A stretch of 64,000 nucleotides of DNA from Candidatus Omnitrophota bacterium (GCA_041650935.1 JBAZKH010000004.1:69040-133039), one strand, 5' to 3'. Shown: positions 21,030-34,328, counted from the first letter of the stretch. Numbers and translations are program-made. The notes: generated from the sequence alone by a model not told the origin.

Positions 21030-21058
21030 TGACTTAACGTCCCCGCCGTTCTACAATA
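21030..21058 (+). promoter_or_regulatory. Sigma70-like promoter (TTGACT-17-TACAAT) for the hydrogenase operon
   Basis: The sequence is TTGACTTAACGTCCCCGCCGTTCTACAAT, 23 nt before the ATG at 21081. Confidence 0.4.
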
Positions 21059-21080
21059 AAATTTCACATTATGAGCAGGT

Positions 21081-22130
21081 ATGGAGAAGATAATCTACAA
21101 AATTACAAAGAAAGATCTTTACGATCTATTCGCAAGGCTATCCTCGGAATATAAGGTCTTTGTCCCCTGCGTAAAGGGGGAAAGGCTCCACTTTGCCCTG
21201 TTCAATCCCGAAAAAGAAAATACCATAGAATTAGGCGGAATCAGGCAGAACCAGCCGTTAAAGAGTTTTATAAACCCGCCCAGAGAAAAGATCCTGGACG
21301 GCCCTGCAGCGGAAAGAGGGCCCGTTATAATCGCTGGCGTCAAGAGCTGTGACCTGTCAGGCCTTACGGTCCAGGATTTCGTCTTCTTAAAAGGCGATGT
21401 CGAAGATCCGTTCTACGCCGCCAACAGAAATAATACCATAATAATATCCAGTGACTGCACTTATGCCAGAGAGACATGTTTCTGCACTGCTATGGAAGGC
21501 GCCCCGTATCCTCAGAAAAACTTCGATATAAACCTCTCTGCCATGGGCGACTCTTTCCTGGCCGAAGTCGCAACCGCTAAAGGCGAAAAGATAATAAATA
21601 ATTTCAAGACGTTCTTCAAGAATCATACCGCGACGGACTTAAATATGAGGCAGGCCAACCGCGAAAAGGTCACCAGGGAGGTCGGGTACTTTATCGAAAA
21701 GAGGGGCACGCAGAATACGGCCCAGATCAAAGGCGCCGTGAAGCGCAATTATAATCTTACGGCGTTATGGCAGGAATTTGCGTCGACATGCGTAGAGTGC
21801 GGGGCGTGCAACCTCGTCTGCCCGACGTGCCACTGCTTTCTCTTATCCGATGAAAAGGTCCCCGGCGGCAATAAGCGGTTCCGGACATGGGATGCCTGCC
21901 TGTACAGCACATTTGCGCGGGTAGCCGGCGGGGCGAACCCGAGGAAACATCTCTACGAGCGCCTGCGTAACAGGTTCGAAAAGAAGTTCGACTTCTTCCC
22001 GCAGGTCATGGATTGTTTTGCCTGCACAGGCTGCGGACGATGCATAGAAGCGTGCCCCGGCGATATAGATTTAAGGGAAGTGTTGAAGGGGCTGGTTTTG
22101 GGTAAATGGAACAAACCGCCGAATGATTGA
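21081..22130 (+). CDS. Fe-S oxidoreductase, sulfhydrogenase beta / anaerobic sulfite reductase AsrA-like
   Basis: It is 349 aa. The C-terminal region has CVECGACNLVCPTCHC and CFACTGCGRCIEACP cluster motifs. It is followed by an AsrB/HydG-like partner. Confidence 0.65.
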   Translation: MEKIIYKITKKDLYDLFARLSSEYKVFVPCVKGERLHFALFNPEKENTIELGGIRQNQPLKSFINPPREKILDGPAAERGPVIIAGVKSCDLSGLTVQDFVFLKGDVEDPFYAANRNNTIIISSDCTYARETCFCTAMEGAPYPQKNFDINLSAMGDSFLAEVATAKGEKIINNFKTFFKNHTATDLNMRQANREKVTREVGYFIEKRGTQNTAQIKGAVKRNYNLTALWQEFASTCVECGACNLVCPTCHCFLLSDEKVPGGNKRFRTWDACLYSTFARVAGGANPRKHLYERLRNRFEKKFDFFPQVMDCFACTGCGRCIEACPGDIDLREVLKGLVLGKWNKPPND

Positions 22131-22151
22131 CTAAAATTAGAGAGTGTCAGC

Positions 22152-22970
22152 ATGAACAATCCATACTCATACACAGAAGCCGAAATACTTAATATCGTCG
22201 ACGAGACGCAGAATATAAAGACCTTTACGCTGAAGCCGAGAAGCGGGATAGGTTTCCGCGCCGGGCAGTTCATGGACGTCACTATACCCGGCATGGGGGA
22301 GGCGCCTTTTACGCCTTCATCGAACCACAATATCAGCGATAAGTTAGACTTTACTATAATGCGCGCCGGGCGTGTCACGGGCCTTATCCATAACGCAAAG
22401 CGCGGCGATATCGTCGGCCTCCGCGGGCCTTACGGGCTGGGTTATCCGCTGGCCGATTTCAAGTCGAAAGAGGTCTTTATAGTGGGCGGCGGCGTGGGAC
22501 TGGCCCCTCTAAGGGCGCTCCTGTACGCCCTGTTTAACGAGGTAAACGATTATAAACGGATAATACTGAAATACGGCGCGCGCACGTCGAAAGATATAGT
22601 CTACCGCCAGGAGATCGAGTCGTGGCGCAAGCACGGGGCGCACGTCGATGTCGAAATAAGCGTCGATGTGGGCGATGATGCCTGGAAGGGCAACGTTGGG
22701 CTCGTTACGACGGTATTAAAACCGGGCACAGTCGACGTGAATAATGCCGTCGCGATAGTCTGCGGCCCGCCGATAATGATGAAGTTCGTCACCTTCAAGC
22801 TTCTCGATATAGGGTTCAAGGATACCTCTATATATCTTTCGATGGAGAAGAATATGTCCTGCGGCGTAGGTAAATGCGGCCATTGCAGGGTCGGCCCGTA
22901 TTACGCGTGCAAGGACGGCCCGGTATTTACGTACGATAAGTTGAAGAATTTGCCTAACATATGGGATTAA
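22152..22970 (+). CDS. FAD/NAD(P)-binding oxidoreductase with C-terminal [2Fe-2S] (PyrK / AsrB / sulfhydrogenase gamma-like)
   Basis: It has ferredoxin-reductase-like FAD and NAD regions (GGGVGLAPL) and a C-terminal CGVGKCGHC. Confidence 0.75.
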   Translation: MNNPYSYTEAEILNIVDETQNIKTFTLKPRSGIGFRAGQFMDVTIPGMGEAPFTPSSNHNISDKLDFTIMRAGRVTGLIHNAKRGDIVGLRGPYGLGYPLADFKSKEVFIVGGGVGLAPLRALLYALFNEVNDYKRIILKYGARTSKDIVYRQEIESWRKHGAHVDVEISVDVGDDAWKGNVGLVTTVLKPGTVDVNNAVAIVCGPPIMMKFVTFKLLDIGFKDTSIYLSMEKNMSCGVGKCGHCRVGPYYACKDGPVFTYDKLKNLPNIWD

Positions 22971-23061
22971 ATACGAAATACTAATATCAAAATTTGAAAC
23001 ATACAAGTTTGGATAATTTGAATTTGAAAAATTGGCATTTGTTTCGAATTTAAAGGTTATT

Positions 23062-32593: not shown

Positions 32594-32622
32594 CGTCACA
32601 TAACCAAGAGGAGAATCTCTTT

Positions 32623-33216
32623 ATGGAGATCAGCGAGATAAAACTCAAGGCTATCGAGATGGCAGATAAGGTTTTTGAAATACTGGACCTGATAGAAGAC
32701 GGGTTCATGAAGAATAAGATGGAGTTCCTGACCGTGGCTATGCAGGAAGAGGGCGAGATCAACAAAGCGGAGAAGATGGTGACCGAAAATATAGCGGTAC
32801 TCTCCAGGTCCGGCGCCGACAAAAAAACACTCTCATCCCTGGCGCAGACTGCTGAAATGCTCGAGCGCATGGGGGACGAGGCGACCGGGCTCATAGAAAG
32901 GATCGAGGTCAAGGTGAACGAGAAACTGCGCTTCAGCGAAGAAGCGGTCAGGGAGTTCGGCGAAACCTACCGCCTGATGAAGGATTCCGTGCAGATGCTA
33001 AGAGAATTTTTGCGCACGGATGCCCCTGCGCTTAAGAAAAAGATCATAGATAACGGTTTCCGGGTGAAGGAGCTTGTCGAGAACCATAGGAAAGCGCATG
33101 CCGACAGGCTCGTCCAGGGCCAGTGCACTCCGATGAGCGCCAATATGTATTTCGATATGCTCGACTTCACCGGCAATCTCGCGCGCCATTCATCTAATAT
33201 AGTCAAGTTAGGATGA
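32623..33216 (+). CDS. PhoU-like / DUF47-like helical regulatory protein embedded in the hydrogenase operon
   Basis: It is 197 aa and helical, with PhoU-like LERMGDEA and MYFDMLDFTGNLARHSSNI segments. Confidence 0.5.
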   Translation: MEISEIKLKAIEMADKVFEILDLIEDGFMKNKMEFLTVAMQEEGEINKAEKMVTENIAVLSRSGADKKTLSSLAQTAEMLERMGDEATGLIERIEVKVNEKLRFSEEAVREFGETYRLMKDSVQMLREFLRTDAPALKKKIIDNGFRVKELVENHRKAHADRLVQGQCTPMSANMYFDMLDFTGNLARHSSNIVKLG

Positions 33217-33220
33217 AAAT

Positions 33221-33841
33221 ATGAGATTACCCAAGATAAGGGAATTGATGGAAGCGATAACGGCTCTGGTAAAAGGGCCGTATACCACGCGCTTCCCGTT
33301 CGCGCCGCATGAACCGGCAAAGAGGTTCCGCGGCAAGCCGGAGTATTCGGATGCGGGCTGTATCGCGTGTGCTGCGTGCGCGCTCGTCTGCCCGGCGAGG
33401 GCGATAGAGGTTAAGGACGTCGCGGCGAAGGGGAGAGCTACGAGGAAGATGGTGCTCCATCTCGACGAGTGCCATTACTGCGGCCAGTGCAGTGCCCTGT
33501 GCACGACGCGCGATGATGATCCGCCCGGCATCCGGCATACGGCAAAATTCGACCTGGCGGGATTCGACAGGCGCGAAATGGTTTCGACGACGGAGGAGAA
33601 AGAGCTTGCGTTGTGCGAAGCGTGCGGCGATGTCATTACCGCCAAGGCGCATCTCGACTGGCTCGCCAGGCGGCTCGGCCCGCTCGCATTCTCCAACCCG
33701 ACACTCTTTTTATCCTCGCTTAAAGATATGGGTTTTGCCGAAAACATCGCGTTTACCGCGCGCGACTATGCGCTGCGCAGCGACCGGATAAAGGTGTTGT
33801 GCGCGAAGTGCAGGCGAAAGGCAACGCTTGAAAAATATTAG
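33221..33841 (+). CDS. 2x[4Fe-4S] subunit (NuoI/EchF/MbhN-like)
   Basis: It has two cluster motifs, CIACAACALVCP and CHYCGQCSALC. Confidence 0.8.
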   Translation: MRLPKIRELMEAITALVKGPYTTRFPFAPHEPAKRFRGKPEYSDAGCIACAACALVCPARAIEVKDVAAKGRATRKMVLHLDECHYCGQCSALCTTRDDDPPGIRHTAKFDLAGFDRREMVSTTEEKELALCEACGDVITAKAHLDWLARRLGPLAFSNPTLFLSSLKDMGFAENIAFTARDYALRSDRIKVLCAKCRRKATLEKY

Positions 33842-34328
33842 CGGCTCTCCCGCGCAGGATCTGAAATCCGCTATCCGGGATAAGCTCAAGGGCAAGATCG
33901 CGATAGCGGGAATAGGGAACATCATCCGCGGCGACGACGGCCTGGGCCCGAAATTTATCGAGGTCATGAGGTCGAAATCGACCATGTCCGGGCTCTTCGA
34001 TTGCGGCACGGCGCCGGAAAATTATATTATCCCGATACTCTCTACGTCCTGCGATACGGTGGTGCTCGTGGATGCCGCGGACATGGGTATCGAGGCCGGC
34101 GGTATACGGATATTCGATCTCGAGGAGATCTCGAACGTCAGTTTCTCGACGCATAACCCGTCCCCGAGGTTATTTACGGATCTTCTTAAAACAGGCAAAG
34201 ATGACCTTTATATATTCGTAGTTTCCATACAACCGAAGACGACCGTCCTCGGCGCGCCCATAAGCGAAGAGGTTCTCCGTGGCATCAATATCCTGGCGGA
34301 TCTTTTTTTGGAAGCTCTTAATGGCTGA
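33828..34328 (+). CDS. hycI: Hydrogenase maturation endopeptidase (HycI/HybD family). It has a non-ATG (TTG) start
   Basis: It has the IAGIGNIIRGDDGLGP motif. It is 166 aa and overlaps the nuoI-like stop. Confidence 0.8.
   Translation: MKNISGSPAQDLKSAIRDKLKGKIAIAGIGNIIRGDDGLGPKFIEVMRSKSTMSGLFDCGTAPENYIIPILSTSCDTVVLVDAADMGIEAGGIRIFDLEEISNVSFSTHNPSPRLFTDLLKTGKDDLYIFVVSIQPKTTVLGAPISEEVLRGINILADLFLEALNG

Follow-up and report, generated by a model that had tools for sequence, protein, structure and literature searches.

The closest described relatives of the hydrogenase operon examined here, which occupies 21081-34328 (+) in 64,000 nucleotides of DNA from Candidatus Omnitrophota bacterium (GCA_041650935.1 JBAZKH010000004.1:69040-133039; this whole stretch is called the window below), have been reported under several names. 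An 'enigmatic' group-4 hydrogenase of Saganbacteria, with its closest relatives in Zixibacteria and Omnitrophica, was described by Matheus Carnevali in 2019; it combines Mrp subunits with cooF-, asrA- and asrB-like genes, for which an oxidoreductase module was proposed (PMC6349859). For Atribacteria, Bird (2019) reported co-transcription with the oxidoreductase, suggested ferredoxin or NADH as donors and mentioned the reduction of sulfur compounds as a possibility (PMC6469976). Méheust (2020) introduced the name 'Mbh-Mrp-oxidoreductase type' and stated that the function of the oxidoreductase was unknown (10.1101/765248). In Glass (2021), Hun is a 16-subunit Ni-Fe hydrogenase-Na+/H+ antiporter supercomplex in which HunAB are AsrAB-like and HunG carries the diagnostic motif pair CGIC/CYCC; the carriers listed include Atribacteria, Firmicutes, Omnitrophica, Elusimicrobia, Bacteroidetes and the cultured Kosmotoga (10.1101/536078). 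The HydDB class of Hun-type large subunits is reported as 4g by both Glass (2021) and Williams (2021) (10.1101/536078, PMC8542988), the latter describing 'Group 4g, Mrp-linked' hydrogenases in Omnitrophota with ferredoxin as the assumed donor (PMC8542988). In addition, a 2026 in-silico study found group-4b clusters that contain homologues of the beta and gamma subunits of Pyrococcus furiosus soluble (sulf)hydrogenase I (SHI) together with a catalytically dead formate dehydrogenase (Fdh)-like protein, and proposed NADP(H)-linked bifurcation for them (PMC13582414).

Our analysis identifies the locus in the window as an Omnitrophota copy of this described and named Hun type. An earlier note on the same DNA had regarded the arrangement as undescribed; it has in fact been published, with Omnitrophica among the carriers, as the Hun supercomplex and as the 'Mbh-Mrp-oxidoreductase type' (10.1101/536078, 10.1101/765248, PMC6349859), and the idea of NAD(P)H as a partner is likewise already in print. 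Because the literature already covers the architecture, its occurrence in Omnitrophica and the NAD(P)H idea, a single locus adds little to it. The reading that we favour, with a probability of roughly 0.55, is that Hun may work reversibly as an NAD(P)H:H+ oxidoreductase whose reaction is coupled to the translocation of H+/Na+. The functional proposal of the earlier note is a reasonable one, to which motif conservation, obligate synteny and the adjacency of rex in relatives lend some further weight.

The letters hunA to hunP were mapped onto the window genes (Table 1) by inference from the subunit groupings in Glass (2021). The window follows the gene order of the published Hun operon (AsrA-like, AsrB-like, polyferredoxin, NuoH/B/C-like, large subunit, Mrp, NuoI-like), an order seen in 80 genome loci, and shares its diagnostic CGIC/CYCC pair. 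The published operon has 16 genes, whereas that in the window has 18, the additions being hycI and, between mrpG and hunP, a gene for a PhoU-fold protein. Some Hun variants also carry a molybdopterin-like open reading frame (ORF) between hunB and hunC, which the window lacks.

Two solved membrane-bound complexes are informative for comparison. P. furiosus Mbh (group 4d, PDB 6cfw) provides the best solved match of HunG (MbhL, 6cfw_L, E 1.6e-89) and of the MrpA-like HunH (MbhH, 6cfw_H, E 5e-48; the next match is MrpA, 7qru_A, E 1.4e-47). Both Mbh and Hun have a Mrp-derived membrane arm, and both are thought to evolve H2 and to translocate ions. Mbh, however, has 14 subunits, a single antiporter-like subunit, a short MbhN, ferredoxin as donor and no HunABC, whereas the window encodes two antiporter-like subunits, HunABC and a NuoI-like subunit that lies nearer to E. 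coli HycF (7z0s_F, E 3.8e-14) than to MbhN (E 5e-8). With formate hydrogenlyase (E. coli FHL-1, group 4a, 7z0s; the Mrp-linked group 4b Mfh of Thermococcus) the window shares HycI, a large-subunit match (HycE, 7z0s_E, E 6e-84) and the HycB-/HycF-like wire, HunC matching HycB-type proteins (7qv7_A, E 1.5e-10; 7z0s_B, E 5.9e-10). Formate hydrogenlyase carries a soluble dehydrogenase module on this wire, whereas the window has the sulfhydrogenase beta/gamma pair plugged in instead; neither formate dehydrogenase or molybdopterin oxidoreductase nor carbon monoxide dehydrogenase nor AsrC was found among the scanned ORFs of the 64-kb window.

The input module has its counterparts in soluble enzymes. 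SHI (group 3b, 9nez) has beta and gamma subunits homologous to HunA and HunB, which keep the flavin adenine dinucleotide (FAD), NAD(P) and [2Fe-2S] sites and the Fe-S cluster cysteines. The large and small subunits of group 3b are cytoplasmic, whereas the window enzyme is a membrane-bound group-4 hydrogenase, and HunG scores merely 30-48 bits against the ShyA/HydA profiles. SHI is reportedly NADPH-dependent, as is said to follow from the work of Ma et al. in 1993 and 2000. This dependence is restated in the 2026 study (PMC13582414). Salmonella AsrABC shares the domain architecture of its AsrA- and AsrB-like parts with the window, from which AsrC is absent. Matches of HunA to the ShyB, HydB and AsrA families of NCBIfam all fall under their cut-offs, and the AsrA and AsrB equivalog thresholds are missed (TIGR02910, 125.7 against a cut-off of 323; TIGR02911, 221 against 289).

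The AsrAB-like pair and its conservation among relatives

The earlier note had equated the AsrAB-like pair with the beta/gamma pair of sulfhydrogenase, and the structural matches bear this out: HunA aligns over its full length with SHI beta (9nez_B, E 5e-36) and HunB with SHI gamma (9nez_C, E 4.2e-51). In HunA, 15 cysteines are invariant in 56 of 56 orthologues; they form two CxxCxxCxxxCP motifs and an N-terminal set that aligns with SHI beta. HunB was surveyed in 60 orthologues of 51-86% identity. The core residues of GEAPFTPSS and GxxT at the FAD site and of GGGxGxAP and CGPPxM at the NAD(P) site are invariant in all 60, as are the four cysteines of the [2Fe-2S] cluster (60/60). The few motif positions that vary do so in 1-5 sequences, and at the NAD(P) site these are only P207 and M209, in one and two sequences, respectively. 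The nucleotide-binding motifs of the flavoprotein, on whose integrity the earlier note had made its proposal depend, are thus intact, and such constraint would be hard to explain if HunB were a mere wire. The three genes hunA, hunB and hunC are separated by gaps of 21-61 bp.

Conservation of the pair was followed in two sets of loci. For the first set, the large subunit was scanned against one genome per GTDB species, which gave 80 loci at 65-91% identity. Their record labels (Omnitrophota, Planctomycetia/Planctomycetota, Clostridia, Latescibacterota, Actinomycetota, Nitrospirota, Elusimicrobiota, Spirochaetota, Brocadiia, Acidobacteriota, Atribacteria and Fermentibacteraceae) span at least 10 phylum-level labels. 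Within this CYCC clade, 53 loci are informative in that more than 4.7 kb is available upstream of the large subunit. All 53 carry the AsrA-like and the CooF-like gene and 52 an intact AsrB-like ORF, in constant order; the sole AsrB exception (L010) still gives a tblastn match. A metagenome scan with P0241, a representative of the CYSC sister clade in which NuoC and the large subunit are fused (they are unfused in the window), gave a second set of 80 further loci in which CYSC and CYCC types are mixed. AsrA- and AsrB-like genes are found in all 27 of these loci with enough upstream flank (21 CYSC, 6 CYCC).

The co-occurrence across related genomes that the earlier note had asked about is therefore general. 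HunAB as a chance neighbour of the hydrogenase was considered and ruled out, the AsrA-like gene being found in 80 of 80 informative loci. On this synteny the beta/gamma pair appears to be an integral and ancient part of the hydrogenase lineage, which removes the claim of novelty for the window. The related question of whether the large subunit belongs to a subgroup that routinely carries such partners has a divided answer: it does belong to a described subgroup of this kind (53/53 and 27/27 loci with the AsrA-like gene), but not to one that has been characterised biochemically. Gene content, homologies, motif conservation and obligate synteny are direct observations on the Hun locus.

The neighbourhood of hunA in the relatives gives a further hint at the redox partner. 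Rex is a sensor of NADH/NAD+. In 32 of 88 loci (10/51 in the first set and 22/37 in the second; for instance, L104:5371-5994), a rex-type gene (PF06971 + PF02629) precedes hunA on the same strand at a distance of at most 160 bp, and in two further loci it is divergent to hunA. This adjacency, of which we found no mention in the published accounts of Hun-type operons, suggests that in many lineages the operon is regulated in response to NADH/NAD+. The distribution of hydrogenases within Omnitrophota can be read in a similar way. Hydrogenases of classes 3b, 3d and A3 are linked to NAD(P)H. The Omnitrophota metagenome-assembled genomes (MAGs) from Ace Lake each encode one hydrogenase type, which is 3b, 3d, A3 or the Mrp-linked '4g' (PMC8542988). 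Because only one type occurs per MAG and the other three are NAD(P)H-linked, this pattern suggests that the Mrp-linked '4g' enzyme functionally replaces them.

Several operons differ from the window in their gene content. Between hunB and hunC, 7 of 21 CYSC loci carry an ORF of 540-630 amino acids (aa) with an N-terminal cysteine motif and a weak match to a molybdopterin-dinucleotide-binding domain (for instance, L091:3977-5653, L099:5921-7663 and L102:6159-8039); these inserts match the degenerate 'Fdh-like' protein of the literature, which occurs in neither the window nor any of the 53 informative CYCC loci. In three CYCC-type loci, the same position holds a small protein with a cyclic-nucleotide-binding domain (L149:7435-7890, L154:7529-8068 and L155). 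In three Spirochaetota loci (L058, L071 and L073) hunP and hycI come immediately after the large subunit, and in L071 the Mrp genes are divergent and upstream of hunA, a case of module shuffling in which HunABC are retained.

Electron flow and the nature of the donor

In the favoured reading, HunB would bind NAD(P)(H) at an FNR/PyrK-type FAD site, and electrons would travel over 11 Fe-S clusters: from the [2Fe-2S] cluster of HunB through about three [4Fe-4S] clusters in HunA, four in HunC and two in HunP to the proximal cluster of HunE and the Ni-Fe site of HunG. Since HunP is HycF-like and HunC is HycB-like, this wiring would copy that of formate hydrogenlyase, with HunAB in the place of formate dehydrogenase. 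The membrane arm, made up of HunD, the antiporter-like HunH and HunL and the MrpB/C/E/F/G homologues, would couple the redox reaction to H+/Na+ translocation. The net reaction would be NAD(P)H + H+ <-> NAD(P)+ + H2, reversible and coupled to the ion gradient. We infer the physical attachment of HunAB, NAD(P)H as the substrate, the direction of the reaction and the ion stoichiometry. At low H2 pressure, as in anoxic sediments and groundwater, the complex would let the cell shed fermentative NAD(P)H in the form of H2. By our own calculation, a driving force of 60-90 mV is left between NADPH, taken as about -360 mV, and H2 at a pressure of 1-10 Pa, which corresponds to about -270 to -300 mV; this span is close to that of ferredoxin-driven Mbh at 1 bar H2.

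A number of points weigh against this reading. At 1 bar H2 and standard conditions, H2 formation from NAD(P)H is calculated to be endergonic by about 18 kJ/mol, so that ion pumping in this direction needs low H2; given the 60-90 mV available at low H2, the direction of the reaction is set by the environment. The choice between NADH and NADPH cannot be read from the sequence. The 2'-phosphate region YGARTSKDIVY was considered as a guide to this choice and judged unreliable, as a similar motif occurs in NqrF, which is specific for NADH. The window contains no rex gene, nor is there a Rex box near hunA (the operator TTGTGAAN4TTCACAA, with at most three mismatches, gives two matches in the window, which is the chance level, and neither is near hunA), so the Rex argument is one from relatives. 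Rex control extends to hydrogenases that make no direct use of NADH, and the adjacency of rex to hunA is therefore circumstantial. In addition, of 48 loci with enough flank, 17, all from close Omnitrophota relatives, carry a gene for a NIL-domain 2x[4Fe-4S] ferredoxin of 135 aa upstream of hunA and on the same strand, with gaps of 54-170 bp in 13 loci and of 0.6-2.3 kb in 4 (for instance, L009:5269-5676). This gene is not in the window; its product could be a dedicated ferredoxin partner of Hun. Finally, ferredoxin is the donor that Glass (2021) predicts for Hun complexes (10.1101/536078).

If that prediction is right, HunABC would be a pure Fe-S wire, and Hun would, like P. furiosus Mbh, pump H+/Na+ as a ferredoxin:H+ oxidoreductase; MbhL is the best solved relative of its large subunit. 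The driving force would be comfortable, the NIL-domain ferredoxin gene of the close relatives would have a ready role, and Williams (2021) makes the same assumption for Omnitrophota. Mbh, however, works without a HunAB-like module, and the HunAB pair is homologous to the NADPH-binding beta/gamma pair of SHI. The essentially invariant FAD and NAD(P) motifs of HunB would be unexpected in a passive wire, nor does its NAD_binding_1 domain suggest that AsrAB takes electrons from ferredoxin, and we regard a ferredoxin-only enzyme as quite unlikely.

The same NIL-domain neighbour could also serve an enzyme with two donors, in which NAD(P)H would enter through HunB and ferredoxin through HunC, HunP or a dedicated ferredoxin, in a confurcating reaction with ion translocation or its bifurcating reverse. 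Hun would then correspond, as a membrane-bound enzyme, to the HydABC-type [FeFe] hydrogenases, and the thermodynamic problem of making H2 from NAD(P)H at higher H2 would disappear. For related clusters with SHI beta/gamma homologues and an Fdh-like protein, the 2026 study indeed proposes a three-way branched cluster network and bifurcation (PMC13582414), and such a scheme would fit the degenerate molybdopterin-like ORF that 7 of 21 sister-clade loci carry between hunB and hunC; against this stands its absence from the window and the CYCC loci noted above. Hun has a single recognisable flavin site, in HunB, and the Pfam and NCBIfam scans found no bifurcating module like NuoF/HydB, NfnB, EtfAB or HdrA, which makes a two-donor mechanism unlikely here. 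The family names of HunAB, and the sulfur-compound reduction mentioned by Bird (2019) (PMC6469976), might instead suggest a polysulfide or sulfite reductase that is fed by hydrogenase electrons as an alternative acceptor branch, or an independent enzyme that is merely co-located. AsrA/AsrB and the sulfhydrogenase subunits are the closest named families, but the AsrA, AsrB, ShyB and ShyC equivalog scores are far under their cut-offs and no AsrC or siroheme subunit occurs in the operon or the rest of the 64-kb window. For an independent enzyme, the strict synteny (80/80 loci) and the short gaps within hunABC would be unexpected, as would a position locked across phyla; both versions seem very improbable.

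The favoured reading, NAD(P)H:H+ oxidoreduction coupled to ion translocation, can be extended to a wider picture, which is offered tentatively and at somewhat less than even odds. Hun would be the hydrogenase counterpart of complex I, exchanging electrons with NAD(P)(H) through a sulfhydrogenase beta/gamma pair instead of NuoEFG and coupled to a Na+/H+ gradient; it would be spread over at least 10 phylum-level lineages, in many of them under Rex, with a PhoU-fold protein as an extra regulatory or assembly subunit in Omnitrophota.

Gene content of the operon and its PhoU-like gene

All 18 ORFs of the single apparent operon described in the earlier note were recovered (18/18), with intergenic spacing of -4 to 114 bp. 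The Pfam and NCBIfam results agree with its family assignments for all 18 genes and, by gene content, with its division into input, catalytic and ion-pumping modules. The motifs that it quoted (RICGICSSSH, DPCYCCTER, CGVGKCGHC, PGGGF, ITLTPGT, RGPSAPDR and RFPDVYTRL) are likewise all present. The candidate promoter matches 10 of 12 consensus positions and is the first of four equal-scoring sites in 20000-36800. Terminator consensus matches within the operon are weak and not above those in shuffled controls. Two of the listed ORFs probably begin later than the longest frame: the mrpC start is placed at about 29540 from the beginning of the Pfam match, and the mrpG start at 32264 from public gene calls.

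Table 1. Features of the Hun-type operon, with positions counted from the first nucleotide of the window
Feature	Position	Strand	Description	Domain match or remark
Candidate promoter	21029-21057	+	sigma-70-like, TTGACT-17-TACAAT	in the 57-bp gap 5' of hunA; consensus match only
hunA	21081-22130	+	AsrA/sulfhydrogenase-beta-like Fe-S subunit, about three [4Fe-4S] sites	Pfam Fer4_22
hunB	22152-22970	+	AsrB/sulfhydrogenase-gamma/PyrK-like flavoprotein, FAD and NAD(P)-binding domain, C-terminal [2Fe-2S]	Pfam FAD_binding_6, NAD_binding_1, DHODB_Fe-S_bind
hunC	23032-23604	+	HycB/CooF-like polyferredoxin, 16 Cys, enough for 4 x [4Fe-4S]	Pfam Fer4_11
hunD	23601-24539	+	NuoH/HycD-like membrane anchor	Pfam NADHdh, E 7e-60
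hunE	24541-24963	+	NuoB-like hydrogenase small subunit, proximal [4Fe-4S]	Pfam Oxidored_q6
hunF	24960-25427	+	NuoC-like subunit	Pfam Complex1_30kDa
hunG	25492-26676	+	group-4 [NiFe] large subunit, L1 RICGICSSSH, L2 DPCYCCTER	Pfam Complex1_49kDa, NiFeSe_Hases
hunH	26682-28487	+	MrpA/NuoL-like antiporter subunit	Pfam Proton_antipo_M
hunI	28602-29123	+	MbhD+MbhE-like (MrpA C-terminal/MrpB-like) membrane subunit	Pfam MbhD, MbhE
hunJ	29127-29534	+	MnhB/MrpB-like subunit, PGGGF	Pfam MnhB
hunK	29447-29878	+	MrpC/NuoK-like subunit	Pfam Oxidored_q2, match begins at residue 35
hunL	29878-31377	+	MrpD/NuoM/N-like antiporter subunit	Pfam Proton_antipo_M, E 3e-64
hunM	31378-31905	+	MrpE	Pfam MNHE
hunN	31912-32271	+	MrpF	Pfam MrpF_PhaF
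hunO	32249-32593	+	MrpG	Pfam PhaG_MnhG_YufB
PhoU-like gene	32623-33216	+	PhoU-fold six-helix-bundle protein	Pfam PhoU; between mrpG and hunP
hunP	33221-33841	+	HycF/NuoI-like 2 x [4Fe-4S] subunit, extra conserved CxxC...CxxC	NCBIfam HyfH/HycF best matches
hycI	33828-34328	+	HycI-type large-subunit maturation endopeptidase	Pfam HycI; TIGR00072 above cut-off; TIGR00142

The catalytic module has the features of a working [NiFe] hydrogenase: the four cysteines of the Ni-Fe site, those of the proximal cluster, a tail at the C terminus and a protease for maturation. L1 and L2 are kept with few exceptions across 79 orthologues (CYCC in 78/79), and C22, C25, C89 and C119 of HunE are invariant in 74 of 74. 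The tail that follows the arginine of L2 is 34 aa long, rather than the 28 aa given in the earlier note; together with HycI, it indicates that the large subunit matures like that of a working hydrogenase. Database matches of HunG reach 81-92% identity, the named ones being MAGs of Candidatus Omnitrophota/Omnitrophica. HunP contains 12 cysteines, of which 10 are invariant in 54 of 54 orthologues and the other two, C194 and C197, are present in 53 of 54. The extra CxxC...CxxC motif of this subunit consists of C132 and C135, which are among the invariant ten and align with a CxxC of E. coli HycF, and of the C194/C197 pair; it could form a further metal site. With the Ni-Fe ligands, the tail, HycI and the maturation genes hypF, hypD and hypE all present, the locus is real, complete and apparently functional.

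The distinctness of the large-subunit clade was assessed with HMMER, in an exhaustive search that covered 1.84 billion cluster representatives. A single full-length representative has CYCC (57% identity), and among 30 representatives that were fetched, CYCC occurs in the Hun-type P0242 alone. P0241, the CYSC representative, is 61% identical to HunG. The other full-length representatives are at most 49% identical, and those of them among the 30 fetched have other L2 variants. The search shows the clade to be discrete.

The PhoU-like gene had struck the earlier note as an atypical insert, but of 50 related loci covering the whole region, 18 carry it, in two alternative positions: between mrpG and hunP in 9 and right after the large subunit in the other 9. 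It is thus a recurrent accessory gene in a subset of Hun operons rather than an isolated insertion. The AlphaFold 2 model of its product is a confident six-helix bundle (predicted local distance difference test score, 94.7) with the two three-helix repeats that define the PhoU family fold, and Foldseek aligns it to the PhoU structures 2i0m, 1t72 and 4q25 with template modelling scores of 0.84-0.90. The PhoU-type motif ERMGDE is invariant in 33 aligned homologues except for R82, which is at least 90% conserved. The protein is 100% identical to an NCBI protein of an Omnitrophota MAG, and the gene has the same neighbours on public ENA and Logan contigs. Homologues are annotated as 'PhoU domain-containing protein' or, at JGI, as 'phosphate:Na+ symporter', a name that presumably reflects the C-terminal PhoU domains of Na/Pi symporters. 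A role in phosphate signalling is unlikely for the embedded gene; that its product regulates or assembles the ion-translocating arm is a guess. We found no discussion of a PhoU-like gene in the literature on Hun-type operons.

Surroundings of the operon and biological meaning

The genes that flank the operon are unrelated to hydrogenase: glycosyltransferases and a split transketolase upstream, and pabB and a class-IV aminotransferase downstream. The pabB-like gene (in the 34321-36635 stretch) shares 8 nt with the end of hycI. ORFs of about 465-485 and 280-305 aa, sizes that match those in the window, come after hycI in most of the close Omnitrophota loci, and in L009 these are 60% and 49% identical to the pabB-like gene and the class-IV aminotransferase, respectively. 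Both genes may be co-transcribed with the hydrogenase.

The hyp genes mentioned above occupy 3395-7173, which places them about 14 kb upstream of hunA; they are hypD, hypE and a hypF of which only the C-terminal Kae1-like half is present. Among the closest relatives (L009 and L013), hyp homologues are followed by an ORF of about 240 aa without a Pfam match and then by hunA. The corresponding block of about 14 kb in the window (7228-21023) has a lower GC content of 0.43-0.47 and looks like an insertion. It encodes an ATPase of the type II secretion/type IV pilus kind with its platform protein, an epimerase, a methyltransferase, the split transketolase and two family-2 glycosyltransferases; within this glycosylation and secretion block, three large ORFs (480, 554 and 623 aa, at 11254-17173) lack Pfam matches.

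Further downstream, a hexokinase gene at 37804-39081 (Hexokinase_1, E 2.5e-58; Hexokinase_2, E 8.7e-72) belongs to a eukaryote-type family that is uncommon in bacteria. The low-GC tail of the window contains an AAA_14/DUF4143 ATPase (55261-56424) and two genes for AbiEi-type antitoxins (57033-57707 and 58924-59697); a nucleotidyltransferase gene (57700-58491) comes after the first of them, a combination that suggests a type IV toxin-antitoxin module.

The Hun type is very widespread in uncultured anaerobes, among them Omnitrophota, Atribacterota, Elusimicrobiota, Spirochaetota, Latescibacterota and Clostridia. If it does couple NAD(P)H and H2 by way of an ion gradient, reconstructions of metabolism in which Hun figures as a ferredoxin-dependent Mbh would be wrong on both redox balance and energy conservation. 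Hun would then also be a living group-4 hydrogenase whose input module handles pyridine nucleotides, a matter of relevance to how complex I evolved, and it would give anaerobes a membrane-energised route to dispose of, or to make, pyridine-nucleotide reductant.

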